From: Nitrospirota bacterium
GTDB taxonomy: Bacteria; Nitrospirota; JACRHJ01
Length of the DNA stretch: 64,000 nt
Direction of reading: 5' to 3'
Assembly: GCA_963845245.1 (NCBI GenBank)
Contig: CAWJRJ010000015.1
Coordinates: forward strand, 1 to 64,000
Below are positions 40,201 through 57,875 of the stretch, in pieces; the first letter of the stretch is position 1, and the number at the start of each line of letters is the position of its first letter. Under the pieces are notes generated by a model. It was given only the letters and a program-made list of their open reading frames with translations. It was not told the origin of the DNA and did no database searches. A program made the translations under genes and the position numbers.

Positions 40201-43200
40201 CTACCACAGCGGGCGCGGCGTCTATTCCGTCCAGCACGGTGGCGGCTGCGGCGACCCTGACCCGTTCGACGGCAGCGACTTTTTCGAGGACGGCACGCGC
40301 AGGGGCCAGGTCACGTCGGTCAACCCGCCCTCAAACGCCAACGACCTTTGCTTCATGTGTCACCAGGTGGACGATATCATAGGCACGGCTTCCGGCGGCA
40401 TGGCTGCCGCTAATACGAAGTTCCTGGGCCACGAGGCCGTGAAGGGCGGCGCAACCATAAGCCACAACATCTCGAAAAACGGCAACGGCGTGGGGAGCGA
40501 CTACCACAATTTCTCGTGTTCCGCATGCCACTTCCCGCACAGCTCCAGCATGAACAAACTCCTGAAGCAGGGCTGCATGAGCCAGGCGGACGCGACCCAG
40601 GACCCGAACCCCTCATATGGCAGCATTTTCCAGTGCCACTCCTACACGAAGGTTTGGTCAGGTGGCTATCAGGGCTGGAGGAACCTCACTACCGCCAAGG
40701 CCGACTTCAAAAGGCCGCCCAACCCGGTAACTAACCTGGCGGTCTCGCAGGACCCGGACCTCACTATCCACCTGTCATGGACGGCCGTTGCCGACGCACC
40801 CGGCCAGGGCGCACACCATTACAACGTCTACAGGTCTAGCCAGCCTATCATGCAGGATACCAAGGCTGCGGCCGCCAGGATATCAAACAAGGCGCTTTCA
40901 GGCGGGGTGCCGGGTTCGGGCATGGCCTATGACGACAGGACCTGCCAGCCTAACACCACCTATTACTACGCGGTGGTGGCCTGCGACCCGGAGAACAACG
41001 AGTCGTTCGTGTCAAACTGTGTGATGGCAGCCATGGGCGCCGACACCTATGCCCCGGCTACAATTGCCGACCAGACTACCGCACAGGTAGACGGCACATA
41101 CAACGTAAAGCTGACATGGCACGACCCGGGTGACAACGTGAACGTTACGCAGTACAAGGTCTACAGAAAGTCTGGCCTTGTCACTTTGGCGAACGACGAT
41201 ATCGTTTCAGGCAATTTCCTTGGCGTCGCCGGTAACCCGGTAACCGACACCAGCCTCAGCGCAGACGGTAGCGCGGACACCAATAGTTACACGTTCACCG
41301 ATGCCACTACCCAGCTCGGGCAGGATTACTCCTATGCCGTTGTCGCATTGGATGCGGCAGGCAACGTATCCCCGGTACCTGCCGGGACCAGCTTCAGCGT
41401 GAGTATAATCGATCCGGCCCCGGCTGCCTTGACTACGCTTACCGCAAAGCCGGTGTCCAAAGAAATGCACGCCCAACTTACCTGGACCGCGCCGGGTAAC
41501 CAGGGAAACATATCAGGATACAAAGTCTACAGGAAGTCGGGTCCGGCGTTTGTACAGGCAGACCTTGTCCCTGGCAACCTTCTAACGACTGTAACAACTC
41601 TCAGCTATACGGCGGATATCCCAGCGGCCGGTACGGATTTCTACTTCGCGGTCACCGCGCTGGACCAGTCTTCCGGCAGGGAATCTAAGCTCGGCAACAA
41701 CGCCCTGATCAACGTGCCGCAGCCGCCGTCAGACCTGTCTTCCGCAAGGCTTTTCAACAGCGGCTTGAAGCTGAGCTGGACCGCACCGTCTTATACCGCC
41801 GACTTCAGGAGCTACAAACTTTATGTCAGACGCAACTCAGGTGCCTGGGCGCAGATGAACCCGGTGGACAACCTGGTGTCAAACGGAAGCTTCGAGGTCG
41901 ACCTCACAGGCTGGACGGCAAGCTCGCTGACGGCCGCAAGGGATTACTCCAGTTCAGCGGATGGCGTGTCCTGCGCAGTGCTCACCGGCACATATGCCGG
42001 CGACAAGTTCCTTGGGTCTGGCATGGTGGCGGTTGCGCCGTCTATAGCCTACACCTATTCAGGCTATGTAAAAGTACCCATCGCCCTGGCGGGCGGCACG
42101 ACCGCGCTCAAGGTCATAGAATACAACTCATCCGGAGGCTACGTAACCGAGCATACCGCTACGGGGGTGTCGGTCACATCCGGCTGGCAGAAACTTACCG
42201 ATATGTGGACAACATCCGCCACCACTACGCAGGTCAAACTAAAGCTTCAGATGTCGGGTACAGGGACCGCATACTGGGACGACGTCCGGCTTGGCTCATC
42301 GGTATCCGTCGGGACCTCAGCCAGGCTTGATTTTACAGGGCTTGAGCCCGGCAACTACGAAGTAGCGGTAACCGCCAACTACGGGACATACGGCGGCAGC
42401 ACCCCTTACGAGTCCATACCTTCGGCGTCCGTGCCATGCGTCATTGACGATACGTCCACGCCGGTTGACATTACAGTCTCGGGAGCCCTCACCCCTGCCT
42501 CGAACTATACGACGCCCAGCCTGTCATGGAATGCGCCGGCGGACAGAAACTTCACGGGCTACACGCCTTCCGGGCTGTCCTCTTACCGGATACAGTCCTC
42601 CCGCGACCAGGGCAAGACCTGGCTGACCGTGCACCGCAGCAGGCTCACAAACCCGGGGTTTGAAACCCATGGCGGAATAGCCGACGATGCCAACACCGAC
42701 ACTTTTACCGGATGGGGCGCGAGCAACATAAATATGTTTGCTGTCACGGACGCGATATTCGACAACAGGGCGTTAAAGATCAGGTATGCCGGTTCAGGCG
42801 ACACGTATGTCAATTCGGCAGAGCCGACCACTGGACAGTCGGTGGCTGGCAAGGCATACTCGATGTCGTTCTGGGCGAAGGCCAGCAAGCCCGCCACCTT
42901 CCAGTATTTCATACAGGCGAACGGCGGGAACTACGAATCCATCGGTACGGTTTCTCCATCGATCGGTACGGAATGGACGATGTTCACTACTTCCGGTTCG
43001 TTCAGCAGCAGCGCAACCGCCTCCGGCGCAAGGGTCATCATCCGGCCATCGTCCGACACATCCGTCGATATAACATTGGACGGGGTAAGGCTTGACGCAG
43101 GCAACGGCGCGCTCCTGGCAAACGACGGCAGTTTTTATCAGCCTGCGAACTACGGCGTCCCAGGCAGTGCCCAGGGCTTTGACGACCCGACCCCGCTGGT

Positions 43201-46114
43201 CGCCGGGACGTCCGCAAGATACCGCATACAGGCGGTCGACGCGAAAGGCAACATATCCGGTACTGCTGCCAGCACCGTGTTCGCGAAACCGGCGGCAATA
43301 ACCGACCTTACAGCCACTAGCTCGCAGACAAGCTCCGCAAACGTCCTGATGTTCAGTGCGCCCGTCACCCTTGCCGGCCTCTCCAGCTATAAGGTATACG
43401 GGAAAGAGCAGGGGACGGCGCTGGTGAACCTCAACGGCGCGACCTTGCTTGGTACAGTTACACCGGCCATAAACCACGGGGGGAACATCGCGGCCGAGTC
43501 CACGCCATCGGCAAGCCACGTCTACTCAACCGGGACAAATTACGCTGCGTCAAATGTCGTCGACGGGAACACCTCCACCTACTGGTACGGCAAAAACGGC
43601 GTCGGGCCGAACTACCTCACGCTTGCCTTTGGTTCACCCATACCGGTTTACAAGGTGTCGTTGTCCTTCTATAGTTCTACATCTTACTGCCCGAAGGATT
43701 ACCTTATACAGACATACGACGGCTCAGCATGGGTGACGCGAGTCACGGTGACGAACGATACTTCCATGGCCCCTACCTATACTCTCTCCGAACCGGTGAA
43801 CGCGAGCCAGGTAAGGATATACATCACGGAGACACGCGGCGGCATGGCGTCATACTTCCCGATAATAGGGGAGTTCATGGTATATCCGGGCGAGAAGTTC
43901 ACGCACAACCTCCAGAACACGGCTCTGAAGGCCGAAGTCGGCCATACCTATGCATATGCCGTCATCGCCGAGGACGTGAATGCGGTCAGTTCCGACATCT
44001 CCAGCGGCCCGGCCACAGTAAGGGCCGTACAAGACAAGGACGGCCCCGACAAGGTGACCGACTTGAGCGTAACGAGCCCGGTGGGCACAACCCAGGTCAT
44101 GCTCAACTGGAGCACGCCGCTCGACAACCTCGGGCGCGGGAGCACGGGGGCGACAGGCTACGAGATATACAGGCTGCCTACCGGCCTCTCAGGCACGCCG
44201 ATGCCGGTTACCGACAGCAACTTCAACACTGCGAGCCTCGTCTACAGCGGCACCTACGCATCTAGCCAGGCCGGCACCCAAAACAGCTATACCGCGACAT
44301 GGTATGACCACGAAGGGGTCAATTACGCGGTACGCTCAAAGGATTCCATCGGCAACTGGTCGCCAATATCCAACAGCCCGTTCATAGTAGTGGGCAAGGA
44401 TACGCAGGCCCCGTCTCCTCCGGTGATCACCGAGTGCATCCCGGTCGATTCGCCTGAGGTGGACGTATACTGGAACGCGGCTGCCGACAACATCGGCGTA
44501 AACGGATACAGGTTGTACCGCGCCGACGTGAACGTCGAACCTTTCCTGACCGATAAATGCATCACCGAGAACAACATCGGCAGCGCTCAGGTAGCTGTGA
44601 ACCTTATATCCTATTATATGAACAGCGCGGCGGATGAAGGCGGGACGCCCGGAAATACATATTACTATGCGCTTCGGGCCTGGGACGACGAGAACAACAT
44701 GTCGAACATATCGAACTGCGCCGTCGCAACCGTCAGGACTACCGAGCAGGACACAACGTCTCCGACATGGAGGGGGGCGTCTCTTACGGCGATACAGCAG
44801 CCCTACCCCGACATAGACCTGATATGGACATCGGCTGCCGACCTGAACGACTCCGGTGGCGCGGGTAGCATAGACCATTACGAGGTATACAGAAGCCAGA
44901 CAAGCTTCAGCTCGACCACAGACCCCGGCGTGTCCATGATCGCGACCGTATCCGGCATAAGGAACTCATATTCTGACAGGACCGGCGACCACGAGGCGAC
45001 GTATTACTACGCGCTGGTGGCGGTGGATGCAGCGACGGCGCACAACAGGAGCGCGATCTCAAACGTAGCGTCTGCACAGGTGGCGCCTGCCCCGTCGCCT
45101 GACAATGCGCCGCCCTCGATACCCGGCTCACTTGCGGTATCTACCGGCGTCTACCCGGACATCAACATATACTGGACGGCCTCGACTGACGTGGACGATT
45201 CGGGCACGGGCCAACAGCTCCTGTACTACAAGCTCTACCGGTCCCGCTATCCGCTCGACATAACCGAAGCCAACAAGCAGAACCCCGCCGAGGTTGATAC
45301 GGTCATGATAGCGTGCGATGCCACCAGCTATACCGCAAGGGGCATCGGAGGGACGCAGTACAACTACAGGCTCGAGGCGTTCGACATGGCAGGAAACGGG
45401 TCGGGACTGAGCGTTCAGCTTATGGGACAGGTGGCGCCTGCCCCGTGCGTGGATTCCACCCCGCCGCGCGCCCCTGCCGACCTGAACGCGACAATAGGCC
45501 CCTCGCCCGATATAGACCTTTCATGGACCGCATCCATAGACGACGGAGGCGTCTGCTCCGGGCAGATCGACCATTACCTTCTCTACAAGGCCAATTACGA
45601 GATAAAGGCCGACACGGACCTGCGGTCGCTTCCGCATATCTATGTAGGCGGGAAGGGCACCTCGTATACCGATTCCACAGGCATACCCAACACGCAATAC
45701 TGGTATGTCCTGACCGCTGTGGACACCTCGGCAAACGAGTCGGCCAGCTCCAACATCATAACGGGGACTACAGGGGCGGACACGATGGCGCCCGCGTCGG
45801 TTACCGACCTGAAGGCTACCCCGGGCACGGGCGAGATAAATCTTACCTGGTGCAGGCCTTCGGACAACGTCGGTATCCACCATTATGAGATCTACAGGAA
45901 AGAACAGGGTACTATCATGACGGACGCGGATATAACGCTGGCGAACAAGTTGACCTGCTTCGCGAATGGCGGTGTCTGCCTGTCATGCAACGATGCGGCC
46001 GTCCTGGCCGGCCATACTTACAGCTATGCGGTCATCGCGGTGGACGGTTCAGGCAACCGTTCGACGATCAGCAGAGGGCAGCACGACGGCGATACCGTCG
46101 GGATAATGCCATGA
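34238..46114 (+). CDS. Giant secreted multiheme cytochrome c (~44 CxxCH plus a CX4CH) with CBM-like domains, Fn3 repeats and an F5/8-type C-like domain
   Basis: Signal peptide; heme motifs to ~40640; then repeated L.W.A..D......Y.VYR...Y.Y.V.A.D..GN.S Fn3 units, NGSFE/NPGFE CBM-like domains and an ASNVVDGNTSTYW discoidin-like domain. Confidence 0.95.
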   Translation: MIRRFLISMLSLAIVAGLALSGTQSMADVTGRPHDLSIDNDEGHCINCHDLHQVNLGEGYPHNLKRGNEIKVCYQCHAGAFSDYSSIDPSLENSASLLSHYDIRAEFSQPHIHFPRYGMDGEINKCSFCHNPHGVFNQGSTTRKPKLLSAGPDAVTDTDEYCFVCHNSDPNPPHAKFSNVSVGNQYKLSRNTYRQMTHSTFYRATTVTEPVPDSALNYDDNPYGKGKDISCLTCHRPHGSPNDHMLKAADNQDFCLSCHNGTKAPDLSSFNATGHGKPGAARICQDCHFPHGTGQKAAIKTTITDPHTGTANQAAVNASGVNEACFACHVTVSAPVASYSFDSSLSGWSTGGLTQTLDTAVYYLGGGSMKQYRTPAASTYSYSPLWQVSPNTQYTFTVFRYIPAAITDGAAYVSLYEFTSAGSSVKSVNVGTSSAATSRWDRVTYTFTTSSTTGQIRIYLFLSGSGTVYWDELRLGTSSSISYYQGKTAYNSGIHKTSVNALNPGGTHGEAAGDCDNCHNPHGRGYDKMLVDTRDQKLCYDCHNEITPNTKSGRDVKADFQMVSRHDLAKVACVNCHNVHKATQSQVMMDPQDASQYMTDKTVFCLSCHSGVMPAGVTGAPNINTEWSGGGHDNTHSLTCSDCHESHSSQNTKNLNYTARAYNGYTARFLAGMSFGSRAFCEACHNRTRAGYKGAKIIPTGSGYVGQHGQSDQTPCSSCHTRKHNPAIANYTGSSSYYTSRCLDCHTQGTGNPYPNPDADFNTPRNGADPDTRASIHNINYNPPTSVDCIKCHGSRHEINHSPASKVFDPDTSHGSSGPFDVSSSSAFCLECHDQTPVSIGGRTPQNILDTYTSAGHGSTHGGQVVCSACHTHHGSTKIKLIKDTINAKPVLGTYSGDNVTVCTACHYGTDARLPQWGGYQVYSGSVHAFGNRSTGRYVTDGRHGRGTCVNCHNPHGSRVGGKTVPSMLYKKEEEVCYTCHNSVTPNTASGEDVQARFKMLTHHNISDADQLGPDGIAGTADDSKIECEDCHDPHTITERLMAFKNVSDAGGRHTMSIEADQDFCVKCHSPNPPARVKYPAEGVWDKSKYDQSAHGNHLKRRKGFGNYSNGITYPCKVCHNPHGSNQAGQQRESWDINRDGIPDDIDGDGILDSSDTVGFIGYSTGTHRVMLVSSISGIPSRASFKRISTTIPYQANGSIDVEICLNCHDGSPAYDVETDIKKRSHHPVEYSQQVGLGGAKIECYNCHDQHRAQATNEAAGEYATTNPDAPREPMPGDASFCLRCHDNTLPPGVSFGSRHLKNIKLSYNPRDHRDTKGYDVITTFMGHYVQATGRPMMCRDCHNQHGSNYTNMLRDNTEPGKPGYDPAQPVQLMQPVALGLTDPMGGGDNEPLTSTTEHCLACHSGVTTYNGNRIPLPPPPDAFERGLTVSSVGKHPDLKPDVTVADEAGGHLYKGTFALVTTPGSVKEECTQCHDSHNPFIATVDGQLTNCYQCHNENTSLPDTQSEFNDNPTNPTRSNSIHPIKFDPRAAGPSAVECLKCHDQSRHMQGKVRLRKNPGTFINYSSDSSVWADPVAARTINSFCLECHGPDTTVATSFWRGGVEHVPPRLPAGHVGGAHFVNANLLCTDCHEYHGSKNKGLRKNAKGDEETFCYNCHSDPAKSRNGIDIQAKFEGTASHHIINAAEQSAKGAKLECEDCHNPHVVTRTAPVVKADDSSTAAVSDTSFCISCHDSNGAPGVKFPGYSTGTSGAEWDPATGKWNKWNKAAYAGSQHDAAGNISCKKCHDPHGSPNTATLLQNISSTSGISVSFGAHSTIRGKRMEELGVNKVCSACHKSSMGVYNGYAGYTGLTFGKKHGVDKNCTYCHNPHGTGAANLVRSTMPLYMNMTSPKFGSVYNFKGFGNPTTGKPFYVFCSSAGCHASERAQIDTFDMDLAPDNFTRNVASSSHHPMKEGVMGCTACHKEHGSGFAPDLRAAYFRESNWPKLYHSGRGVYSVQHGGGCGDPDPFDGSDFFEDGTRRGQVTSVNPPSNANDLCFMCHQVDDIIGTASGGMAAANTKFLGHEAVKGGATISHNISKNGNGVGSDYHNFSCSACHFPHSSSMNKLLKQGCMSQADATQDPNPSYGSIFQCHSYTKVWSGGYQGWRNLTTAKADFKRPPNPVTNLAVSQDPDLTIHLSWTAVADAPGQGAHHYNVYRSSQPIMQDTKAAAARISNKALSGGVPGSGMAYDDRTCQPNTTYYYAVVACDPENNESFVSNCVMAAMGADTYAPATIADQTTAQVDGTYNVKLTWHDPGDNVNVTQYKVYRKSGLVTLANDDIVSGNFLGVAGNPVTDTSLSADGSADTNSYTFTDATTQLGQDYSYAVVALDAAGNVSPVPAGTSFSVSIIDPAPAALTTLTAKPVSKEMHAQLTWTAPGNQGNISGYKVYRKSGPAFVQADLVPGNLLTTVTTLSYTADIPAAGTDFYFAVTALDQSSGRESKLGNNALINVPQPPSDLSSARLFNSGLKLSWTAPSYTADFRSYKLYVRRNSGAWAQMNPVDNLVSNGSFEVDLTGWTASSLTAARDYSSSADGVSCAVLTGTYAGDKFLGSGMVAVAPSIAYTYSGYVKVPIALAGGTTALKVIEYNSSGGYVTEHTATGVSVTSGWQKLTDMWTTSATTTQVKLKLQMSGTGTAYWDDVRLGSSVSVGTSARLDFTGLEPGNYEVAVTANYGTYGGSTPYESIPSASVPCVIDDTSTPVDITVSGALTPASNYTTPSLSWNAPADRNFTGYTPSGLSSYRIQSSRDQGKTWLTVHRSRLTNPGFETHGGIADDANTDTFTGWGASNINMFAVTDAIFDNRALKIRYAGSGDTYVNSAEPTTGQSVAGKAYSMSFWAKASKPATFQYFIQANGGNYESIGTVSPSIGTEWTMFTTSGSFSSSATASGARVIIRPSSDTSVDITLDGVRLDAGNGALLANDGSFYQPANYGVPGSAQGFDDPTPLVAGTSARYRIQAVDAKGNISGTAASTVFAKPAAITDLTATSSQTSSANVLMFSAPVTLAGLSSYKVYGKEQGTALVNLNGATLLGTVTPAINHGGNIAAESTPSASHVYSTGTNYAASNVVDGNTSTYWYGKNGVGPNYLTLAFGSPIPVYKVSLSFYSSTSYCPKDYLIQTYDGSAWVTRVTVTNDTSMAPTYTLSEPVNASQVRIYITETRGGMASYFPIIGEFMVYPGEKFTHNLQNTALKAEVGHTYAYAVIAEDVNAVSSDISSGPATVRAVQDKDGPDKVTDLSVTSPVGTTQVMLNWSTPLDNLGRGSTGATGYEIYRLPTGLSGTPMPVTDSNFNTASLVYSGTYASSQAGTQNSYTATWYDHEGVNYAVRSKDSIGNWSPISNSPFIVVGKDTQAPSPPVITECIPVDSPEVDVYWNAAADNIGVNGYRLYRADVNVEPFLTDKCITENNIGSAQVAVNLISYYMNSAADEGGTPGNTYYYALRAWDDENNMSNISNCAVATVRTTEQDTTSPTWRGASLTAIQQPYPDIDLIWTSAADLNDSGGAGSIDHYEVYRSQTSFSSTTDPGVSMIATVSGIRNSYSDRTGDHEATYYYALVAVDAATAHNRSAISNVASAQVAPAPSPDNAPPSIPGSLAVSTGVYPDINIYWTASTDVDDSGTGQQLLYYKLYRSRYPLDITEANKQNPAEVDTVMIACDATSYTARGIGGTQYNYRLEAFDMAGNGSGLSVQLMGQVAPAPCVDSTPPRAPADLNATIGPSPDIDLSWTASIDDGGVCSGQIDHYLLYKANYEIKADTDLRSLPHIYVGGKGTSYTDSTGIPNTQYWYVLTAVDTSANESASSNIITGTTGADTMAPASVTDLKATPGTGEINLTWCRPSDNVGIHHYEIYRKEQGTIMTDADITLANKLTCFANGGVCLSCNDAAVLAGHTYSYAVIAVDGSGNRSTISRGQHDGDTVGIMP

Positions 46115-46965: not shown

Positions 46966-49516
46966 TCAGTACTTCTCTTCCAGGAAGTTCCGTGCATAAT
47001 GCTCCACAGCCTCGTCGGTGTGGAGCATCGCGTCCATCTGCCGGGTATACGATATCAGCCTTCCGAGCTGGTCGAGTATGGGCTCCATCCCATCCTTTGA
47101 GAGGTTCGAGAGTTTTGCTATTATCAGGTCGCCCTTTTCTGTCACATTGAAACCGAAATTCCCCAGAATTATGGAGATCAGATGTATCCTGCGCGAGCGT
47201 TTCGTTATATCGGTCGCACCGCCGGTAAACCTGAAATAGATATGGTTGTTCCTTGCCGTCTCGCTCATGTAGCAGTCGAGCATGTTGAAGTGGTAGCCGA
47301 ACTTCAGGCTCAGGTTGACGTACTCAGCCGATACCACAGCTACGTTATATCCCGCATATTCCCCGGCGTTGGCTGTTATGTCCGGCATCCGCATCATGCT
47401 CGACAGGAAGTCGCCCGCGGATAGGGCTACAATGTCTGAGTGCCAGACCCCTTCATGTGTCATGCCACCCAATATGGCCCGAAGCGGCATGGAGGATACG
47501 TCGTCCACTGTGGCAGTGGCTTTGCCCTTGTCCGTGCCGAGGCCGCCGCCGATGTCTATCACCATTATCCCTGCCGGTATAGGAAGCTCCAGTTTTACAG
47601 GTGCCCGGCCCTTCGCCTGCTCGCCCCACTGCCTGGCGTTCTCCACAAGCTCGGCCACTGATTTCTCGTGGATGAACCTGAGGATGTCGTGCAGTGTCCT
47701 GCAGCCTTCCGGAGAGAAGTCCTCCCTCAGGGGGTCGATCAGGTTCAAAGGAGCTATGTGTCGGAGGATCCGCCGTTTCTTCCTGTATTCGCCCACGCCC
47801 TCCATCCCGAACACCTTGGCCTGTGCGTACTCGACAAGCTCCCTCAGCACTCCTTCATACACGACGGGGCTTCCGTCTTCGTCAATGTACAGCGTCACAG
47901 GCTGGCCATCCGTAAGCGTCCTGGTTGCGTTACCGGTGTTGACAAGCGTAGGAAGGCGGAACTCCCTGCACACCGATGCCATGTGGCTGGTCAGGCCGCC
48001 GACGTCGGTGATTATAGCCGAGAGGCGGTGCATGGCCTTGGTGATATTTGATGAGTCGGTGTGCGCTACAAGCACCGCGCCGTCCGGGACCCTGTCCAGG
48101 TCGTCTTCATGCTTCAGTATGAAAACCTTGCCCGCACCTGCCCCGTACTGTACCGGCATGCCCTTGCCGGACATCAGCACCGGGGCGTCGGGCGATACTG
48201 TATGCGCCACTTTTTTCTCTGGAGCCCCTTCCGAGACCTTCAGGGGTCTTGCCTGTAGTATGTATATTACGCCGTCGTTTCCTATGGCCCATTCTATGTC
48301 CTGCGGCCCGCCCAGATGTTTCTCTATCCTGACGGCCTGCTTCGCGAGTTCCAGTACCTGTCCGTCGGTTAGGCAAAAGGTGTCGGTCTTCTCGACCGGG
48401 ACAGGCAGACTCTCGGTGCCGCCTCCCTGCCGGAGGACTCACCATGCGGTCCTTCTTTCCGGCCTTCTTGTCACGGATCGCCGGTAGCTCCTCGTTTGTG
48501 GCGGGCTTACCTACAGTGTACAGGTCGGCGTCTACACTGCCTTCAACGACGCTGACGCCAAGGCCCCAGGAGGCGGTCATCAGGAGCGCATTCCGGTCCC
48601 CGCCCGGGCTGGCGGTATAGATCACGCCGCTCGATGCGGCGTCCACCATTATGATACAGCCAACAGCCATCTTCATTAGTCCCGCATCGAAGCCGAGACG
48701 CCTCTGGTACGCCACCGAGCCGGGCGAGTAGAGACTGGCTATAACTTTCTTATATGCCTCTTCTAGTGCAGCCGAAGATGCCGGTACGTTTAATACCGTT
48801 TCGAACTGGCCCGCGAAGGAGAACTCTCCGTCCTCTTCCTCGGAACTGCTCCTCACGGCAAGAAAGAATTCGGCCTTCTGCCGCTCTCTCATCTCTTTAA
48901 TGGCGGCATCCATGGCAATGCTCAGTTCGGCCGGGACCTCGGCCGCTTCTATCGTGGCCCGTAAGGTCTTAAGCCCGTTCTCCTCGTCTGCGCCGCCTAT
49001 GGTCTCCTTGACCTTTGCGTCGAGGCCGTTATGCCTCATGAACAGGTCGAAGGCCCGCGTGGTTATGGCAAGCCCGTCCGGTACGTTGGATGTCCCGTGG
49101 TTCTTCAGTTCGGCGAGCACGGCGTTCTTGCCGCCTACTTCCCGTGCGGCATCCGTGGAGATATCTTTGTAGGGGATTATCAAGCTAGCGGAAGTATTGA
49201 CCGGCCCTTCGATCTCTGCCGTTATCAAGGCGTCGATGCGGCGGAACGCTTCGCCCAGGTGCGAATATTTTCCCTGCGTAAGTTCCTCGAACCCGGAGAG
49301 GGATGTCCCCATCGCGGCGGCAAGGTTTGAGTGGGCCTCCCTGACGTAGACTACGTCGAATATGTAGTCCCCGCCAAGCTTCTCGCCCATGTCCGTGATC
49401 ACCTCGAGAGCGTGGTTGTTGCTGTCCAGCACGCCCTTGAAAAGGCCGAACACGTCCTTCAACGGCAGCCTTTTCTTGAACAGCCGTCCAGTTAGGAAAC
49501 CGCGGAGGTTCAGCAT
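46966..49516 (-). CDS. PEP synthase/dikinase-like protein (ATP-grasp plus phospho-His swivel domain, non-canonical C terminus); one indel near 48437
   Basis: VGGKNA.L, AVRSS..EED..SFAGQFET.LNV, ASWGLG..VVEG, PQDIEWA and GGLTSHMASVCRE; C terminus SLKFGYHF...Y.RF.GGA is not the PEP-binding barrel. Confidence 0.9.
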
Positions 49517-49529
49517 GGAGTTTAAGACC

Positions 49530-49895
49530 TCACTTGTTCAGTGCGCGTGCGATCGAGGCCTTCAGTTCTTTTATCTTGACCGGCTTTGGGAAGAAGTCAT
49601 GGACCTCGTTCCGAAGCGCCTCGATAGCAGCGTCCAGGTTGGCGAAGGCCGTTATCATTATGACCTTAGTGTCGGGGTAGCGGGACTTGACGGTCCTCAG
49701 CACCTCCATGCCGTCTATGCCCTTCATCTTGAGGTCGGTCACCACCACGTCGAAACGCTCGGTTTCCAGCCTCTTGAGAGCGGGTTCGGCGTTGAGGAAG
49801 GTCTCCACCTGATAACCTTCCTGTTCCAGCGACAACTTGGCCATGTCCCCGACGATCTTTTCGTCGTCTATCACCATTACCCTATAAGTGCTCAT
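49530..49895 (-). CDS. Single-domain response regulator
   Basis: VIDDE, VVTDLKM.GIDG, ITAF and KP; 121 aa with no output domain. Confidence 0.95.
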   Translation of the reverse strand: MSTYRVMVIDDEKIVGDMAKLSLEQEGYQVETFLNAEPALKRLETERFDVVVTDLKMKGIDGMEVLRTVKSRYPDTKVIMITAFANLDAAIEALRNEVHDFFPKPVKIKELKASIARALNK

Positions 49896-51300
49896 CCGAT
49901 GTTTTGACTCCTTTGCTTATTGGAAGTTCGACAATGAACATAGTCCCTGCCCCCACCTGGCTTTCAACCCTTATATTGCCCTTGTGGTTCTTGATTATAC
50001 CATAGCTGACGGAAAGGCCTAGCCCGGTGCCATCGACACCCTTCGTGCTGAAGAACGGGTCGAATATGTGCGGCAGGAGGTCCGGCGGAATGCCGTTCCC
50101 CGTGTCGGTAACGTCTATCTCCACAAACTCGTTCCCGGCACCCGCGCGTGTAGTGATCGAAAGCATGCCGCCTTCGGACATCGCCTGGATCGAGTTCACG
50201 ATCAGGTTTACAAGGACCTGCTCTATCTGGTGCTCGTCCACCATTATATGCGGGAGCCCCTCTCCGAGGTTCAGCCTGGTATCGATGTTCGAGATATCCA
50301 GCATGTTTTGCACCAGGGTGAGGGTCTTTTGCACGACGTTGTTCACGTCGGCATCCCTGAGGTCGGCATCCTTTGGTTTTGAGAAGTCCAGGAGGTTCCT
50401 TACGATAGTCTTTATCCTCTCGGTCTCGCCATCCACCTTGCTCATGAACTCCAACCTCTGCTCGCGGCTCAGGTTGTCGTACAGCTCATCATAGGTCTGC
50501 GCAATCATCGATATGTTGTTCAACGGGTTTGTAAGTTCGTGCGCGACCCCGGCGGTTAGGGTGCCGATGGACGCGAGCTTCTTGGCCTGTATTATCTCCT
50601 CTTCCCTGTTCCTGAGTTCCACGGACATGGTGTTGAATGCGTTCACGACCGACCCAAGCTCGTCTTTCGACTTTACGCCTTCGATCTTGCTGAACCTGCC
50701 GCCGGATATGGCTTTGGCCGCCCTCTCGATCTTTCTGAGCGACTCCAGTATCCTGTGCGACGCAAACTGGCTGACCGCGATCGCCAGCAGGAAAACCGCG
50801 CACAACATATAGAATAGCAGCTTTTGAGATTCGGATATTATCTCGTTGACGCGCGCCCTCTCAAGGAGCGTAATATGTTCGGAAAACTCCTTGAGCTGCT
50901 TGCCCTGAGCACGCAGCTTTGCTTCGAGGCGGCTGTCCAGCCGTCCGCCACGGCGTGCCTCCTCCACGGCATCTGAATAGCCCCTCATGTAGTACAAGAG
51001 CGAGTCAAGGTCTTTTTTGCCGACCGCGCGGATTATGTCTTCCCTTTCGTTGCCGATGGACTTGCTCGTCTCGTCTATCTTATCCTTTATCGCAATCAGG
51101 GCTGACTCGTCTTTGTAGAGGTAGAAGTTCTTCTCCGAGAGCCTCATTTCCAGGAAGGAGGCGTTGAGGTCGTCGGCTATTTCCACGAACCGCAGCTTGG
51201 TAAGCACGAGGTTCAGGTTCTGATAGGCGAAGAAGCCTATAAGAACTATGAGGGTGAGGTTGAATAAGTTGGAGAGTATCGTCTTGTGCTTGATCTTCAT
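49882..51300 (-). CDS. Membrane sensor histidine kinase (TM, periplasmic helical domain, TM, HAMP, HisKA, HATPase)
   Basis: DELG...AFN.M HAMP, AGVAHELTNPL, VNLIVNS, DTGNGI, FDPFFSTK and GTGLGLSVSYGII; ATG at 51300 overlaps the upstream stop. Confidence 0.95.
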   Translation of the reverse strand: MKIKHKTILSNLFNLTLIVLIGFFAYQNLNLVLTKLRFVEIADDLNASFLEMRLSEKNFYLYKDESALIAIKDKIDETSKSIGNEREDIIRAVGKKDLDSLLYYMRGYSDAVEEARRGGRLDSRLEAKLRAQGKQLKEFSEHITLLERARVNEIISESQKLLFYMLCAVFLLAIAVSQFASHRILESLRKIERAAKAISGGRFSKIEGVKSKDELGSVVNAFNTMSVELRNREEEIIQAKKLASIGTLTAGVAHELTNPLNNISMIAQTYDELYDNLSREQRLEFMSKVDGETERIKTIVRNLLDFSKPKDADLRDADVNNVVQKTLTLVQNMLDISNIDTRLNLGEGLPHIMVDEHQIEQVLVNLIVNSIQAMSEGGMLSITTRAGAGNEFVEIDVTDTGNGIPPDLLPHIFDPFFSTKGVDGTGLGLSVSYGIIKNHKGNIRVESQVGAGTMFIVELPISKGVKTSDEHL

Positions 51301-52514
51301 TGTTGCTCTTCTCTGACGGGACACCGGATAAGGCCGGCCTGTTCCCTCCGGACCGGCATGTACCACAGCACACCGTCAGCGATCATGAAAAGCCCCGCAG
51401 CGAAGAGCGCAAGGTCCACAATCGAAACGATGCTCACGCCGAAATACACCGTAAGGCCAAGCCCGAGACTTGTGAAGGCCACGCCTGTCCTTATGAAAGC
51501 CAGCCCTGTCCGGGCACGCGCATAAATGGTCCTGTAGCAGGCGTCGATGGTGCGCTGAGAGGCAAGCACGTTCCGCTCTCGCGCAAGGTGGGTGCGTTCC
51601 TTGCTTGCCGGTGATGGAAAGAGGATGGTGGAAAACGGCGCGAGGAAATCTCCAAGGCGCGCCAGCATCGTCTTCTTGGTCGGCGCAGCAACGCTTGCGC
51701 CTTCTATGAAGTGGTAGCCTTCAAGGAAGCAAATTGTTGCGGCGGTCACTTCGACCAGCGTATGGTGGCCGGGCTGCCGCATCTTGCGTCTTCTGATATT
51801 CAAGTACCCGCTCAACCCGTACACGGCTACTATAAGCCCTGACAGAAGCACCGCCCAGTGGAAGACGGCGTGCTTTCCAAGCTTGTCAGCCCGTATCAAT
51901 GCATCGGAGATAGCCACAAGCCCGAGCCCTCCACGTAAAGAGGCGAGGTCAGTCCTTGCGAGCGCAAGGTCCGTCCTGTAGCAGGCGAGCCTTGTGCGCC
52001 ACTGGGCCATTATATTCCTCCAGTACGCATGCCCCGTCCTTTCCGTGCCTATAAGACGGCCCGGCACGCTGTGCAGGAAGTCCTGGATGTACCAGCGTAT
52101 GTCCTCTGAAAGCGCCACCATGAACTCGACGTTCATACCCTTGAAGGCCTTCCCCGTCTCTTCGCGGACGCCGGGGTCGGCTGGGTTTCTTGCGGCGACT
52201 ATCACGGTGTCACCGTCCTTTATTACCGGGAACCACCTGCTGTAGAACAGGCCATCGCTGTCAAGCCCTTCGAGCAGTTCAGGGGGTATGGGCATCCGTT
52301 CGTCGTACTTCACCGAGGGTATTCCATAATATTCGGAGAGCGCCTTCAGCAACGCCTCCTTTGGCACACGTTTTTCCCTCAACAACACCGTCTCGAGGTC
52401 GAGGCCCCGTGCGACCGCAGACACCTGGGCGGCTTTAAGCTCCGCCTCGGGTATGAGGTTGCTTCCCGTCAGGGCAGCATACAGGTGGTCGCTGGTGCCC
52501 TCAGATATCATCAT
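51297..52514 (-). CDS. Membrane protein: GspE/PilB N-terminal-like domain plus two DUF202-like modules
   Basis: N-terminal LLKALSEYYGIP.V...FPV......VAA.NP; two runs of RTxLAxx heptads, each followed by a hydrophobic helix pair. Confidence 0.85.
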   Translation of the reverse strand: MMISEGTSDHLYAALTGSNLIPEAELKAAQVSAVARGLDLETVLLREKRVPKEALLKALSEYYGIPSVKYDERMPIPPELLEGLDSDGLFYSRWFPVIKDGDTVIVAARNPADPGVREETGKAFKGMNVEFMVALSEDIRWYIQDFLHSVPGRLIGTERTGHAYWRNIMAQWRTRLACYRTDLALARTDLASLRGGLGLVAISDALIRADKLGKHAVFHWAVLLSGLIVAVYGLSGYLNIRRRKMRQPGHHTLVEVTAATICFLEGYHFIEGASVAAPTKKTMLARLGDFLAPFSTILFPSPASKERTHLARERNVLASQRTIDACYRTIYARARTGLAFIRTGVAFTSLGLGLTVYFGVSIVSIVDLALFAAGLFMIADGVLWYMPVRREQAGLIRCPVREEQQ

Positions 52515-54138
52515 GGCTGAAGACCGCCTTTTTCCACTGCCTTACGGGCTTTCCGTAATCGGGGACCGTTATTTCCATGTCTGCGAAGCAGTAAGGGAAC
52601 TGTTTACGGGTATTGTTGGCGGGTATGTGCCAGTACAGCCCGTCGCCTATTATGGCAAACCCCGAGGTTATCATGAGCACGTCGAAGACCGTCCATGCGA
52701 TGCTTCCTGCCCCGAAGTAGACCAGCAGGCCTATGCCGACTGATGATATGCTCATGCCTGTCCGTATGAATGCCATGCCCGTCCGTGAACGTGCCATCAC
52801 CGTACGAAGCCTCGCCATAACGCCGCGCCTGTCCGCAAGCACGGTCCTCTCAAGCGCCAGCCCGGTCGTGGCCCAAATGCCCGATGCCTGGCCTTCCCTT
52901 ATGGGCAGGGGCTTGGAGAAGAAGTCCTCCGGGTCCGGCCCCTTGTGCCTGGGCGGGAACACGAAGTCCCATATGGTGTCCCTGCCCTCGGCGGTCTTTA
53001 TGGAGGCGAGGCCCTCCACGCCCGCGCTTCGTCCAGGGATGTACCAGTAAAAGCCCTCCAGGGCCATCAGTACGCCGGTAAATATGAGCAACGAGTCAAA
53101 AACCGTCCAAGGCCCAGTATGGAAGGACCGTATGAATGCGATGCCAAGGCCTACGAAGGCAATGCCGGTGCGCGCGAAGGCCAGACCGGTGCGCGCCTTG
53201 GCCATGGACGTCCTGTAGCAGGCAAGCGTCGTCCTCTCCTCGGCCATGTCAGTCCTGTCGCTCGCAAGGAACCTCCGCCTCATTACAGGCGAGAGGCTTT
53301 CCCAGTCTTCCCTGAGCGTTGCGGCCGTCTCGACCATCGCCGTGCGCATGAAGACAGGGTTGACGCCGGGGTTTGACGCTTCGAGGTTTGTCGTACCCCA
53401 GGTCGGTTCCGTGGAGCTGCAGTCGAGCCGGATCTTCCCGTATTGCCTGGTCGGGAAATACCACATAAGGCCATCAACCGCCGCCGCCGCGCCAAGCAAC
53501 AGCAGACCCGCTTCGGCTATTCCCAGATATCCCAACCCGAATATCCTGTATAAAAGGACAGCTATAGTGATGAACGAGATCCCGGTCCGCATGAAGGCCA
53601 GGCCCGTCCTTCCCTTGGCCAGCTCTGTCCGGAAGAATGCGAGCTGTGTGCGCCTGTTGGCAAGGAACGTCCTTACCTTTGCGAGAGGCGTCCTGCCCGA
53701 TGTGTTGGGTAGCCTGGGGTTTATGTCCTGATGGTTCTCTATGATCCTGACGAGGTCTGACGGGAGGGCGACCATGAACCGGATATTGTCCACGCCGAGC
53801 GTCTTTTTTACATCCTCGACGGTGGCGGGGGATTCCGGGTCGTACGCTATTACCTCGGCAGCGCCATGCCCCACTGATACGGGTATCCAGAGAGCGGTCT
53901 TGAACCTTTCAAGGTCCATCCCCCGCGTAACGGTCTGTGAGATGACTACTTCCTCGTCGTATTCGACAAACGGGCGGCCGTAGTGTTCCGAAAGGGAGAG
54001 TAGCACCTCGTGCCTTGGGACGCCCTTCAGGATCAAAATCTCTTCGATGGCATTCCCCGAACGCCTGGACTCCTCCTCGGCTTCGTGAAGCCCGGTCTCA
54101 GTCACAAACCCCCGCTGGATCAGCCTTTTGTGTTTCAT
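52501..54138 (-). CDS. Membrane protein: GspE/PilB N-terminal-like domain plus three DUF202-like modules
   Basis: N-terminal VLLSLSEHYGRPFV...WIPV.....VIAYDP; three runs of RTxLAxx heptads, each followed by a hydrophobic helix pair; paralog of the next gene. Confidence 0.85.
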   Translation of the reverse strand: MKHKRLIQRGFVTETGLHEAEEESRRSGNAIEEILILKGVPRHEVLLSLSEHYGRPFVEYDEEVVISQTVTRGMDLERFKTALWIPVSVGHGAAEVIAYDPESPATVEDVKKTLGVDNIRFMVALPSDLVRIIENHQDINPRLPNTSGRTPLAKVRTFLANRRTQLAFFRTELAKGRTGLAFMRTGISFITIAVLLYRIFGLGYLGIAEAGLLLLGAAAAVDGLMWYFPTRQYGKIRLDCSSTEPTWGTTNLEASNPGVNPVFMRTAMVETAATLREDWESLSPVMRRRFLASDRTDMAEERTTLACYRTSMAKARTGLAFARTGIAFVGLGIAFIRSFHTGPWTVFDSLLIFTGVLMALEGFYWYIPGRSAGVEGLASIKTAEGRDTIWDFVFPPRHKGPDPEDFFSKPLPIREGQASGIWATTGLALERTVLADRRGVMARLRTVMARSRTGMAFIRTGMSISSVGIGLLVYFGAGSIAWTVFDVLMITSGFAIIGDGLYWHIPANNTRKQFPYCFADMEITVPDYGKPVRQWKKAVFSHDDI

Positions 54139-54409
54139 GGGTTTAGTCCGGGGATGTTGAGGGCATCGATTTCGACTTCGTATGTCTTTGACGGGTGTGC
54201 ATGTAAAGCGTTGACCTGTATGTGTTTGACACAATGATAATTTTTTCATTATAATCTTCCTTCGCAACCAATGTCAATAAAGATGTATTTTAAGAATACG
54301 GGCGGCCCTTGCATCCCCGTTTATCCATGAAAGAGGTATACTGATTAATATAAATCCAGCAAGTAAAAGTTCCGGTGGCTGCAATTATTATCCCTCACGG
54401 AGGCTCATC

Positions 54410-54553: not shown

Positions 54554-54693
54554 CAGCCTGCGCCGCTTTTGCGAAAGGTGCATTAAAGGAAAATCCTGAA
54601 TACCTTGTTTTATAATGCTTTGGGGTGATTGACAATCTAGGTAAGTCGTTTTATCATGAATCATCATTCAATGTACATTCAGGAGCAGACACC

Positions 54694-55413
54694 ATGCCTG
54701 AAAAGAAGAGCATCCTAATAGTCGATGACAGCCAGGCATACCTCTTGAACCTATGTACGCTCATGAGTCGGATGGGTTTTGGCGTTATCCCCGCCGAGAA
54801 CGGTCTTGAAGCAATGAAACTCCTCAAAATCAAGACGCCCGACCTCGTCCTTCTAGACGTCAATATGCCGATGGTTGACGGTATCAAAACCCTCCAGCAC
54901 ATAAAAGATACTACACCGAACATCCCTGTAGTGATGCTCTCGGCCGTCAATAACAGCGCAATGGTCGCGCGGTGCAAGGAACTCGGCTGTTCCGACTACC
55001 TCCCCAAGCCGTTCCATGTCCGCGAACTCCACGGCGTGCTCCAGGAATGGATATATCATCCTGTCGGCGGGAAGCGGAAGCACCTGCGGGTGGATATCGC
55101 AGCCACCGTTCATGTGCTTTTCAACGGGATGTTATACGGGCTGCTGTCCGAGACGCTGTCCGAAGGTGGCATATACGTCAAAATGGAAGTTCCTCTTCCT
55201 GCCGGTTCCCATGTCAGGATAACTCTAGAGGTGAGAAACGGGAAGGTACTGCTCCTGAACGGCCACGTGATATATACACGTGGCTTCAAAAATTACGCAA
55301 CGGACATTTCACCCGGCATGGCTATCGAGTTCACGGACATGAACGATGACGACGCGGCGGAGTTAAGCCAGTATGTCATTAGTCTCGTAAACGACAACCT
55401 GACGTACAACTAA
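54694..55413 (+). CDS. Response regulator receiver fused to a PilZ domain
   Basis: ILIVDDS, LLDVNMP and KP; then RKHLR (RxxxR), LSEGG and GMAIEF. Confidence 0.9.
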   Translation: MPEKKSILIVDDSQAYLLNLCTLMSRMGFGVIPAENGLEAMKLLKIKTPDLVLLDVNMPMVDGIKTLQHIKDTTPNIPVVMLSAVNNSAMVARCKELGCSDYLPKPFHVRELHGVLQEWIYHPVGGKRKHLRVDIAATVHVLFNGMLYGLLSETLSEGGIYVKMEVPLPAGSHVRITLEVRNGKVLLLNGHVIYTRGFKNYATDISPGMAIEFTDMNDDDAAELSQYVISLVNDNLTYN

Positions 55414-56048: not shown

Positions 56049-56915
56049 TTGGAAACAGTCAAAGCGGGTTTCGGGCATATCGGCCCGGTGATAATCCTGT
56101 CGGCCTATCTGGTACTCCTCATTTTCGAGACCGCCTTCCCGCTCCGGGCAAGGAAGCTGCCCAGGGCAGGACGTTTCGCGGTCAATGCCGTTATGACCCT
56201 GCCCGTATTTCTTATAGGAGGTTCGATAGTCCGAACCGTCGGCCTGTCCCTCGCGGCGTGGAGTGAATCAACACGCTTTGGGGTCCTTCAACTGGTGACG
56301 CTGCCTTCTTCCGCACGTCTCGTGCTGGGGTTCCTGCTCATGGACCTCTCCTTCTACTACTGGCACCGGATAAACCACGAATGGCCCCTGCTCTGGCGGT
56401 TCCATAACGTGCATCACTGCGACCCGGACATGGACGTAACCACGTCGTTCCGGTTCCATTTCATGGAGGTGCTGTACTCCACCGGTTTCCGGGCGGTGCA
56501 GGTGCTCCTCATCGGGGTTTCACCCGTCACCTATGCGGTCTATGAAATATGTTTTTCTTGCGAGACAGTCTTCCACCACAGCAACCTGCGGCTACCGGTG
56601 GCGGTCGAGCGTATGCTAAACAAGGTTATAGTTACCCCCAGGATGCATGGCATTCACCATTCGTTCGTTACGGAAGAGACAAACTCGAACTACTCGACTA
56701 TATTCAGGTGGTGGGATTCCATCCACGGGAGCCTGAACCTGGGCATAAGCCAGTCGGAGGTAACGATTGGCGTCCCGGGCTATAGCCTGCCAGACGACAA
56801 CAGTGTCCTAGCCCTTACCGCCATGCCTTTTAAAAGTCAACGGGATTACTGGAAGACGCCGGACGGAACTCGTCCGGTGCGCCCCGCACACGACAAAAAA
56901 CAGATGATGGAGTAA
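56049..56915 (+). CDS. Sterol desaturase / fatty acid hydroxylase family membrane protein
   Basis: His boxes YYWHR..H, FHNVHH, FHHSN and HGIHHS, followed by NSNYS. Confidence 0.92.
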   Translation: METVKAGFGHIGPVIILSAYLVLLIFETAFPLRARKLPRAGRFAVNAVMTLPVFLIGGSIVRTVGLSLAAWSESTRFGVLQLVTLPSSARLVLGFLLMDLSFYYWHRINHEWPLLWRFHNVHHCDPDMDVTTSFRFHFMEVLYSTGFRAVQVLLIGVSPVTYAVYEICFSCETVFHHSNLRLPVAVERMLNKVIVTPRMHGIHHSFVTEETNSNYSTIFRWWDSIHGSLNLGISQSEVTIGVPGYSLPDDNSVLALTAMPFKSQRDYWKTPDGTRPVRPAHDKKQMME

Positions 56916-56921
56916 AAGAAT

Positions 56922-57875
56922 ATGAGGACGTTTGAAGAAAATGTAGCGGAATGCTCAGGAGGTGCGCTTTACTGCCGTGATATCGGTACGCTTCAGGTCA
57001 ACCTCGGGTTCAGATGCAACCAGCAGTGTGCACACTGTCACGTATCGGCATCACCTGCGCGGACAGAGGCTATGGAGTTGCATACCATGGAGTCTGTACT
57101 TGCGGCGGCCCGTAGTACGCGGCCGAAGCTTGTCGACCTCACCGGAGGCGCACCTGAGTTGAACCCGCATTTCATAAAGTTCGTAGAGGCTCTCAGGACT
57201 TCCGGACACGAGGTGCAGGTACGCACCAACCTTACGGCCCTTCTTGAGCCGGGCCTTGAGGGCACTGCGCAGTTCCTGGCGGATTTCAATGTCGGGCTTG
57301 TGGCGTCCATGCCGTGCTATCTTGAAGAGAACGTGCGAAAACAGCGCGGGGCAGGCGTCTACGAGAAGAGCGTAGCGGCCATGAAGATGCTGAATGAACT
57401 GGGCTACGGCGTCAATCCGGAACTGAGGCTCGACCTGGTTTACAACCCCGGAGGGGCGTTCCTGCCGCCTGCACAGGCAGCGCTTGAGGTGGACTACCGA
57501 AGGGAGCTTTTCTCGCGGTTCGGGCTCGTGTTCTCAAACCTGCTCACAATCACGAACATGCCGCTTGGCCGTTTCTGGTCGGACATCAAAAGGATGAAAA
57601 AGGACGACGAGTATCTTGAGCTTCTTGGTGGTTCGTTCAACCCGGCCACCATCGAGGGGCTGATGTGCAGGCACCAGGTGAGCGTGGGCTGGGACGGCAG
57701 GCTGTACGATTGCGACTTCAACCTCGCGCTCGGCCTGCCAGTGAATGAGTCCGCACCGCAGACGATAGATGAGTTTGATGTATCGAGGCTCACAAAACGG
57801 AGAGTAGTGACCGGCCTGCACTGCTACGGCTGCACGGCCGGCTGCGGCTCGTCGTGCAAAGGCGTGCTGGTATGA
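56922..57875 (+). CDS. arsS: ArsS-like radical SAM/Cys-rich protein (arsenosugar biosynthesis family)
   Basis: TLQVNLG..CNQQCAHCHV, DLTGGAPELNP, MCRHQVSVGWDG.LYDCDFN and a C-terminal HCYGCTAGCGSSC. Confidence 0.9.
   Translation: MRTFEENVAECSGGALYCRDIGTLQVNLGFRCNQQCAHCHVSASPARTEAMELHTMESVLAAARSTRPKLVDLTGGAPELNPHFIKFVEALRTSGHEVQVRTNLTALLEPGLEGTAQFLADFNVGLVASMPCYLEENVRKQRGAGVYEKSVAAMKMLNELGYGVNPELRLDLVYNPGGAFLPPAQAALEVDYRRELFSRFGLVFSNLLTITNMPLGRFWSDIKRMKKDDEYLELLGGSFNPATIEGLMCRHQVSVGWDGRLYDCDFNLALGLPVNESAPQTIDEFDVSRLTKRRVVTGLHCYGCTAGCGSSCKGVLV

Follow-up and report, generated by a model that had tools for sequence, protein, structure and literature searches.

A conserved bacterial gene pair with five arginine-ladder DUF202 modules is predicted to form a two-chain ring and may line an anion pore

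In a 64,000-nucleotide stretch of DNA from a Nitrospirota bacterium (assembly GCA_963845245.1, contig CAWJRJ010000015.1, positions 1 to 64,000; hereafter the window), two adjacent minus-strand genes, which we call A and B, encode membrane proteins carrying three and two copies, respectively, of a DUF202 module in which the arginine motif of the family is lengthened into a ladder. The pair forms a real system that is strongly conserved and appears to be undescribed; full-text literature searches found no publication on a paired MshEN–DUF202 architecture among the matches listed, those for DUF202 and YidH being judged by titles and abstract openings. One of the listed YidH matches, on the alanine exporter AlaE, names YidH in its abstract, the opening of which says nothing of such an architecture. 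Sequence and structure prediction give good support to a ring of five modules on two chains with an extended arginine ladder, and a channel function for A and B is likely, the pore and its anion cargo being the parts that we infer. The fullest explanation, to which we give an even chance, is a 1:1 A•B complex in which a pseudo-five-fold, arginine-lined ring ordered A1-A2-A3-B1-B2 conducts or holds an anion, the N-terminal domains serve for docking, and a dedicated kinase and response regulator control the system. This explanation builds on domain make-up, heptads, residue invariance, the 3+2 module count and gene linkage as read from sequences, and on a predicted heterodimer and ring order; a pore, an anion cargo, a docking role and regulation by phosphorylation would follow. 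To our knowledge, DUF202/YidH is a large bacterial family of no known function, and its only understood members belong to the eukaryotic polyphosphate channel.

An earlier note on this DNA, made from the sequence alone, had proposed that two overlapping genes encode a pseudo-pentameric channel, and both open reading frames (ORFs) were found where it had placed them (Table 1). The ORF of A spans 52501-54267 on the minus strand, with its likely start at the ATG at 54138; this start is shared by most homologues, and an identical protein in the protein collection also has 545 residues. The reading frames of A and B overlap by 14 nucleotides. The note had called for a profile scan against PF02656 (DUF202) and PF05157 (MshEN), and both families are matched above the Pfam gathering cut-offs of 23.4 and 23.1 bits, respectively. 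DUF202 matches A with 53.6 bits in three stretches, the best at residues 445-497, and B with 27.5 bits in one stretch at residues 328-385; the MshEN scores are 34.4 bits for A and 42.9 bits for B. No other Pfam family reaches its gathering cut-off in either protein, TTM and SPX included, and B has sub-threshold matches to NEDD4_Bsd2 and TMEM100. The first module of B falls under the DUF202 threshold, yet it can be aligned with the other four. In a genome-wide DUF202 scan, the window gives four DNA-level matches, three of them above cut-off, and the genome's only other DUF202 gene is an ordinary one, with two RT heptads ahead of its first membrane helix.

In all five modules, the (E)RTxLAxxRT signature of DUF202 precedes the first membrane helix and is lengthened to five or six heptads, and every heptad run leads into two hydrophobic helices. 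The repeats are not perfect. For example, one of the five heptads of A module 3 reads RRGVMAR, and B module 1, the most degenerate of the set, has heptads at 159-200 with six in-register arginines (the first at 159, the last at 194) and threonine replaced in two. When aligned over ~86 positions, the modules are 38-44% identical to the first and share 15 invariant columns, five of which are arginine. Runs of this kind seldom arise by shuffling: at least five arginines at a spacing of seven occurred in 30 of 20,000 shuffles of A and in 26 of 20,000 shuffles of B, against three such runs in the real A and two in the real B, and among the other spacings from 3 to 11 that were scanned, runs reached at most three. 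The tandem RTxLAxx heptads and paired hydrophobic helices described in the earlier note, three modules in one gene and two in the other, are therefore borne out, and its approximate module sites (53695, 53280, 52870, 52045 and 51600) agree with the mapped heptad runs. Its remark that DUF202 proteins usually have about two heptads holds for the genome's ordinary DUF202 gene and for Vtc1 of yeast, in which the channel description in PMC9911596 names K24 and R31.

Alignments of 62 A and 60 B sequences reveal that the ladder is held almost without change. Invariant arginines include R149, R156, R163, R170, R177 and R184 in A module 1; R302, R316 and R323 in A module 2, where R295 and R309 are present in at least 90% of sequences; and R431, R438, R445, R452 and R459 in A module 3. 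In B module 1, R159, R166, R173, R180 and R194 are invariant and R187 is found in at least 90% of sequences, and in B module 2, R307, R314, R321, R328, R335 and R342 are all invariant. Over the five modules, the ladder totals 28 arginines, each invariant or kept in at least 90% of sequences. Mean conservation by heptad position, taken across the five modules and their first six heptads, is 0.98 at position a (arginine), 0.92 at b (threonine) and 0.90 at e (alanine), compared with 0.75-0.78 at c, d, f and g; positions a, b and e share one face of the helix. Where the helix passes through the membrane, glycine, alanine or serine occupies most of the a and e positions, and in two modules an additional in-register arginine (R198 and R337, each 98% conserved) stands at the outer end of the first transmembrane helix (TM1).

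The pairing and the module count are conserved as well. A search with A returned 1263 homologues at E ≤ 0.001 among 7999 scored candidates in a clustered protein collection; the best 120 of the 1263 are 470-589 residues long and 59-100% identical, 118 of these 120 carry both PF05157 and PF02656, and their named sources include Nitrospirota/Thermodesulfovibrionales, Dissulfurispiraceae, Dissulfurimicrobium and Desulfobacteraceae. We then compared 68 loci, one genome per species, using a hidden Markov model (HMM) built from the window's five modules, which detected modules in 67. The total of five that the earlier note had asked of homologous pairs is found as 3+2 in 55 of the 67 loci, and 10 of the other 12 are cut, broken or split: in seven, a contig ends inside A or B (L023, L034, L046, L052, L054, L063 and L066), one lies degraded on a short contig (L014), and two have split genes that still total five modules (L015, 3+1+1; L064, 1+2+2). 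B directly follows A, with an overlap or a gap of at most 40 nucleotides, in 59 of 60 loci, which at the sequence level is the arrangement of translationally coupled partners.

AlphaFold2 (AF2) models were obtained for A (mean predicted local distance difference test score, pLDDT, 81.3; predicted template-modelling score, pTM, 0.69) and for B (pLDDT 79.3, pTM 0.57). In both models, each module consists of one unbroken helix of 52-56 residues, comprising the heptads and the first membrane segment, followed by a return helix. The predicted helices span residues 149-200 and 206-234, 284-338 and 344-385, and 421-475 and 480-513 in modules 1, 2 and 3 of A, and residues 155-209 and 216-244, and 303-358 and 364-394, in modules 1 and 2 of B. 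We predicted the complex of the membrane parts (A 140-545 and B 150-405), each with its own alignment. The interface score (ipSAE) was 0.69, 0.56 and 0.69, and 0.00 in all three controls; partner pLDDT was at least 58 (58-59), and at least 75% of contacts were shared between runs. In the calibration of this tool, which applies only approximately to user-supplied alignments, the mark was reached by 116 of 157 solved complexes and by 2 of 215 mismatched pairs; resemblance to solved structures may also account for a pass.

The predicted contacts join A module 1 (149-199) to B module 2 (306-356) along ~50 residues and A module 3 (427-474) to B module 1 (156-206), and A module 2 has no contacts with B. 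Modules A3 and B2 use positions g, a, d and e at these interfaces, and B1 and A1 use a, b, e and f. Positions a and e take part in both kinds of interface, which would place the arginine and alanine nearest the ring axis. This pattern fits a closed, same-handed ring in the order A1-A2-A3-B1-B2, and the contact list suggests that the arginines point inward. The heterodimer proposed in the earlier note thus passes its controls in prediction, with the contact pattern of a closed five-helix ring and arginines near its axis.

These results bear on whether A and B act together at all. If each protein formed its own homo-oligomer, then the 3+2 count would be an accident of one duplication, and single-module relatives, which must homo-oligomerise if they form rings, together with an additional A copy in locus L011, could be cited for such a scheme. 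We consider it improbable, as A and B are co-inherited and coupled in nearly every locus, a genome search also finds adjacent second matches, the module count is fixed at 3+2, the predicted heterodimer separates from its controls and makes ring-closing contacts, and chains of three or two modules alone cannot tile a five-fold ring.

The closest understood relative of the pair is the VTC complex of yeast. According to the sections of PMC9911596 that describe its channel, VTC is a pentamer of Vtc1, Vtc3 and Vtc4 at 3:1:1, in which each subunit has three membrane helices, fifteen in all, and the five TM1 helices form the channel. The same sections describe an upper channel wall with basic residues of Vtc3 and two pairs spaced by seven residues, K24/R31 in Vtc1 and K622/R629 in Vtc4, and a narrowest point that is ringed by arginine and holds phosphate ions. 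What the earlier note stated of VTC (a pentamer of this stoichiometry, five channel helices and basic residues seven apart) agrees with this account (PMC9911596). The pair and the VTC channel (three Vtc1, Vtc3 or Vtc2, and Vtc4) share the DUF202 family and basic residues spaced by seven on the first helix, both have unequal subunits rather than a homopentamer, and the pair is predicted to share five units per pore and first helices that line it. By contrast, the pair distributes its five units over two chains (3+2) and VTC over five, and its ladder would form five to six basic rings, compared with approximately two in VTC, on a path predicted to extend ~5 nm into the cytoplasm. The pair also has MshEN-fold N-terminal domains and is accompanied by two-component genes and a PpsA-like enzyme, whereas the TTM polymerase and SPX domains of VTC are absent.

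From these comparisons we propose the following mechanism. A and B would join 1:1 into one membrane complex, with their five DUF202 modules closing a ring. Each module would supply one continuous helix of ~50-55 residues, the last third of which would be the pore-side transmembrane helix, equivalent to TM1 of VTC, and the first two thirds of which would project ~5 nm into the cytoplasm. The second helix would return through the membrane, so that each module would begin and end in the cytoplasm and modules could be strung in tandem; with two membrane helices per unit, tandem units can keep one orientation. Arginine (a), alanine (e) and threonine (b) would lie at or beside the bundle axis, the arginines stacking five to a ring in five to six rings that lead into a transmembrane stretch lined by glycine, alanine and serine. 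Such a ladder would amount to an extended version of the mouth of the yeast VTC channel, which has two basic rings, and the complex would therefore most likely conduct or hold an anion. The MshEN-fold domains, having lost the site for cyclic di-guanosine monophosphate (c-di-GMP), would act as docking modules, the system's own sensor kinase and receiver-only regulator would control it, and a co-inherited phosphoenolpyruvate (PEP)-synthase-like phospho-histidine enzyme would work with it.

The genes assigned these latter roles lie immediately downstream of B. In the 36 loci that extend 6 kilobases or more downstream of B, the sensor histidine kinase is found in 34, the receiver-only regulator in 35 and the PEP-synthase-like enzyme in 25; no other neighbour recurs in the loci that lack an adjacent dikinase. 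The kinase ORF contains an ATG 22 codons in that would overlap the stop codon of B, and receiver orthologues are 62-87% identical across loci. In the window, a single frame change, located between 48440 and 48474, breaks the PEP-synthase-like gene into two ORFs that overlap; the change may be an assembly error or mark a real pseudogene, and orthologues of the gene are single ORFs of ~860-880 residues. Like dikinases of the PpsA and rifampicin phosphotransferase type, the enzyme has an ATP-grasp domain (PPDK_N) followed by a swivelling phospho-histidine domain (matching PEP-utilizers), with a TSH motif in the window's copy and in 19 of 22 orthologues. The PpsA model matches it over positions 5-469 of 798, scoring 340.7 bits where the cut-off is 598, and no NCBIfam score attains its cut-off. 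In contrast to PEP synthase, the match thus ends at about position 469, short of a C-terminal PEP/pyruvate-binding domain, and the C-terminal 285 residues match no named family, including those in Atlas. Extra PpsA-like genes (~850-930 residues, 39-42% identical) accompanied by a small receiver gene occur upstream of A in L038, L047, L049, L050 and L062, which suggests that a dikinase–receiver module recurs in these bacteria.

Across a sample of 251 Nitrospirota genomes, in which an orthologue of the enzyme was defined by its C-terminal domain at E ≤ 1e-98, A and the enzyme each occur in 47. Both are present in 43 genomes, A only in 4, the enzyme only in 4 and neither in 200, and A and the enzyme lie on separate contigs in some of the 43 co-carriers, such as G008 and G009.

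This linkage raises the question of what the complex might carry. PPK1 is found in 37 of the 251 genomes and in only 1 of the 47 A carriers (G157), and PPK2 in 74 of the 251 and in no A carrier; neither kinase has a match in the window's own genome (90% complete). Non-carriers of the same families also lack PPK1 and PPK2, making the absence a trait of the lineage that offers no within-family contrast. The absence of both kinases from Nitrospirota carriers makes ordinary polyphosphate doubtful as a cargo, and we consider it unlikely there. The earlier note's suggestion that the pair could form a pore for a polyanion is thus borne out in part: most of the computational checks that it named and that were run favour it, the predicted five-module ring among them, and polyphosphate as the cargo is in doubt.

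A true bacterial counterpart of VTC, which would feed polyphosphate or another phosphate polymer into the stalk and move it across the inner membrane, accordingly strikes us as distinctly unlikely. The shared domain family, the five-fold logic, the heptad-spaced basic residues and a co-inherited, ATP-using phospho-histidine enzyme that mostly retains its TSH motif all point towards such a function, but the kinases are missing from nearly all carriers, A and B have no Pfam match to TTM or SPX, and we know of no polyphosphate chemistry in PpsA-like enzymes. A more elaborate scheme, which we offer as a long shot, is that the five genes form a make-and-thread machine, comparable to VTC but with other components: the phospho-histidine of the enzyme would build or load a phosphate-based polyanion, the enzyme would dock on the N-terminal domains and feed the 5-nm arginine stalk and the pore, and the kinase and receiver would act as the switch. 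One possible product would be polyphosphate synthesised independently of PPK1 and PPK2. The distribution of the kinases is compatible with an anion, based on phosphate or sulfur, on which the linked enzyme would act, and our guess is that the cargo is a phosphate-based or sulfur oxyanion.

More broadly, the ladder is not restricted to the pair. A profile of the five modules matched 1566 representatives at E ≤ 0.001, of which 135 also pass E ≤ 1e-10. The best 150 of the 1566 include A-type (three-module) and B-type (two-module) proteins and many single-module proteins with 5-20 arginine heptads, the longest run (20) being in P0143. In P0143, P0148, P0149 and P0234, the 9-20 heptads follow one another without a break. 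P0149 joins twelve heptads and a DUF202 domain to a receiver domain, and P0234 joins nine heptads and a DUF202 domain to an SBF transporter domain of the sodium/bile-acid type. P0148 resembles P0149 by eye, but its sequence is cut. P0213, an unrelated chain of 476 residues, has five ordinary DUF202-like modules by the module HMM and four by Pfam, and P0269 (531 residues) has tandem ordinary DUF202 modules, four by the HMM and three by Pfam, with one degenerate copy by eye. The profile matches P0221, P0249 and P0215 were set aside as unrelated repeat proteins rather than modules. Ordinary bacterial DUF202/YidH proteins share the signature at the first membrane helix and are single small proteins with two heptads, whereas A and B have tandem modules of five or six heptads, fused N-terminal domains and a fixed partner gene. 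The single-module proteins with 8-20 arginine heptads (such as P0143 and P0149) come closer, sharing the heptad, the two-helix hairpin and a DGxxWY-type ending. Known as database sequences only, they differ from the pair in having one module per chain, so that a ring would be homomeric, much longer stalks and no MshEN-fold domain. According to the earlier note, homologs that occur singly with freely varying module number would speak against a five-module channel. Single-module relatives do exist, and the number of modules per chain therefore varies across the wider family, although homopentamers of these relatives would fit the five-fold logic.

Some of the same relatives raise the possibility that the bundle is an anion-sensing or scaffolding stalk rather than a transporter, binding an anion or a phosphorylated partner in the cytoplasm and signalling to the kinase, receiver and dikinase, with the hairpins acting solely as an anchor. 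The tight two-component linkage and the receiver fusion in P0149 are in keeping with this arrangement; in addition, the fold of the N-terminal domains serves protein docking in secretion ATPases (EpsE-N:EpsL and PilB-N:PilZ), and the small residues at the transmembrane a and e positions could simply pack tightly. We nevertheless judge it unlikely, as the DUF202 relatives of known role form a channel with the same heptad-spaced basic residues (in the channel description of PMC9911596), near-invariant arginines (R198 and R337) occupy the outer end of TM1 in two modules, and an SBF transporter domain is the fusion partner in P0234.

The N-terminal domains themselves have the MshEN/GSPII fold. Foldseek matched the N-terminal domain of A to PilF GSPII-B and MshE-N at template-modelling scores (TMt) of 0.63-0.71 (~0.65 for PilF GSPII-B). 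For the N-terminal domain of B, VIA-align gave MshE-N (5htl_B; Z 14.7, root-mean-square deviation 3.5 over 139 residues) and XpsE-N (2d28_C; Z 14.3), and the fold matches include EpsE-N:EpsL and PilB-N:PilZ entries. The domains thus share a fold (Z 12-15) and a Pfam family with the MshEN/GSPII domains of MshE, PilB/PilF and GspE/XpsE (5htl, 8pdk, 2d28 and 7lko). Unlike those secretion and pilus ATPases, A and B attach the domain to a membrane protein, have no Pfam match to the C-terminal T2SSE ATPase domain of GspE/PilB type and lack the two 24-residue c-di-GMP motifs as defined in Wang et al. 2016 (PMC5013675): in strict or relaxed form, the motifs given there were found in none of 62 A and none of 60 B homologues. 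Consistent with this result, the NCBIfam motif model NF053729 scores 18.5 in A against a cut-off of 38 and gives no match in B. The ATPase model TIGR02538 (cut-off 675) covers only residues 4-140 of A (21 bits) and 12-148 of B (29 bits). As for the PF05157 check proposed in the earlier note, the family match stands, and the domain lacks its c-di-GMP motif.

A channel gated by c-di-GMP, with the MshEN domains binding the nucleotide as in MshE to open the pore, is scarcely credible, and we reject it on the absence of the motif from all 122 homologues checked. The PF05157 match, structural similarity to MshE and PilF domains with c-di-GMP bound, and a receiver-PilZ gene divergently upstream of A in the window (54625-55413, plus strand) would have been in its favour, but the motif model stays below its cut-off, the PilZ gene is not kept at this site in other loci, and some orthologues lack the first ~30 residues. 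The A orthologues of Desulfobulbales/cable-bacteria type (~506-527 residues; L037-L042, L058 and L065) start ~18-34 residues later than the window's A and are without the first helix or helices of the domain. We conclude that the N-terminal domains are probably docking modules and not c-di-GMP sensors.

Several observations count against an arginine-lined pore formed by one A and one B. The modules have two membrane helices where VTC subunits have three. Foldseek with the model of A and a wide VIA-align search with the model of B, for which whole-chain queries of long helices are poor probes, returned no VTC chain; these searches gave only relatives of the N-terminal domains and generic helical bundles. 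A module profile run against sequences in the Protein Data Bank (PDB) likewise found no VTC, its one chance match being a TetR protein at E 0.4. The predicted ring order comes from one tool at moderate confidence (partner pLDDT 58-59), and its pass could in part be memory of the solved VTC fold. Packing 25-30 arginines on one axis would need counter-ions, and the arginine stripe may instead be a surface that binds an anion or a protein. In one Nitrospirota genome (L011, 7624-12279), two tandem A-type genes precede a B-type gene, giving 3+3+2 modules, and in L022 (9568-12186), A is followed by an 872-residue ORF in which a B-like N-terminal domain and one module run in frame into a histidine kinase; this ORF may be a genuine fusion, or it may stem from a deletion or a chimeric assembly. 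No A–B fusion was found among B relatives of 710-2025 residues at E ≤ 1e-10, which is weak evidence. Finally, related genomes are not independent, and the co-occurrence counts overstate support for linkage to the enzyme; they are best read as support, not as a statistic.

Table 1. Coordinates of the gene pair, its domains and the linked genes in the window
Feature	Position	Strand	Description
Gene A	52501..54138	minus	545 residues; MshEN-fold N-terminal domain and three arginine-ladder DUF202 modules
A N-terminal domain	53719..54138	minus	Residues 1-140; MshEN/GSPII fold without c-di-GMP motif
A module 1	53443..53706	minus	Residues 145-232; six RTxLAxx heptads (149-190) into two-helix membrane hairpin
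A module 2	53035..53268	minus	Residues 291-368; five heptads (295-329) and hairpin
A module 3	52624..52860	minus	Residues 427-505; five heptads (431-465) and hairpin
Gene B	51297..52514	minus	405 residues; MshEN-fold N-terminal domain and two arginine-ladder DUF202 modules
B N-terminal domain	52065..52514	minus	Residues 1-150; MshEN/GSPII fold without c-di-GMP motif
B module 1	51789..52052	minus	Residues 155-242; six arginines in heptad register and hairpin
B module 2	51351..51608	minus	Residues 303-388; six heptads (307-348) and hairpin
Sensor histidine kinase	49882..51366	minus	HAMP, HisKA, HATPase_c
Receiver-only response regulator	49530..49895	minus	121 residues
PEP-synthase-like phospho-histidine enzyme	46966..49516	minus	PPDK_N ATP-grasp, swivelling His domain, C-terminal domain of ~290 residues

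Elsewhere in the window are three giant plus-strand genes, at 21969-27482 (1837 residues), 28572-34199 (1875 residues) and 34238-46114 (3958 residues). The 1875- and 3958-residue proteins, both multihaem cytochromes, contain MtrC/MtrF-like domains and numerous paired CXXCH motifs, and the 1837-residue protein combines RCC1 propellers with cytochrome domains; together, these genes look like equipment for extracellular electron transfer. On the other side of the pair, also on the plus strand, a radical SAM/DUF3641 gene adjoins a gene for a membrane protein of the fatty-acid-hydroxylase family (56922-57875 and 56049-56915), followed by genes for a VTT-domain protein and a DUF2064/glycosyltransferase protein. 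These four genes are probably unrelated to A and B.

The pair gives a testable model for bacterial DUF202 proteins, in which a five-unit pore would be built from two chains and the arginine motif at the mouth would be multiplied into a long charged tunnel. Arginine at a core position of a five-helix coiled coil would also be an unusual protein architecture. A dedicated kinase, regulator and enzyme travel with the pair, and the cargo could be traced through them. The hosts are sulfate-reducing and sulfur-disproportionating Nitrospirota and Desulfobacterota, including relatives of cable bacteria, and because the Nitrospirota carriers lack the usual polyphosphate kinases, the answer would bear on how anions and phosphate are handled in these organisms.

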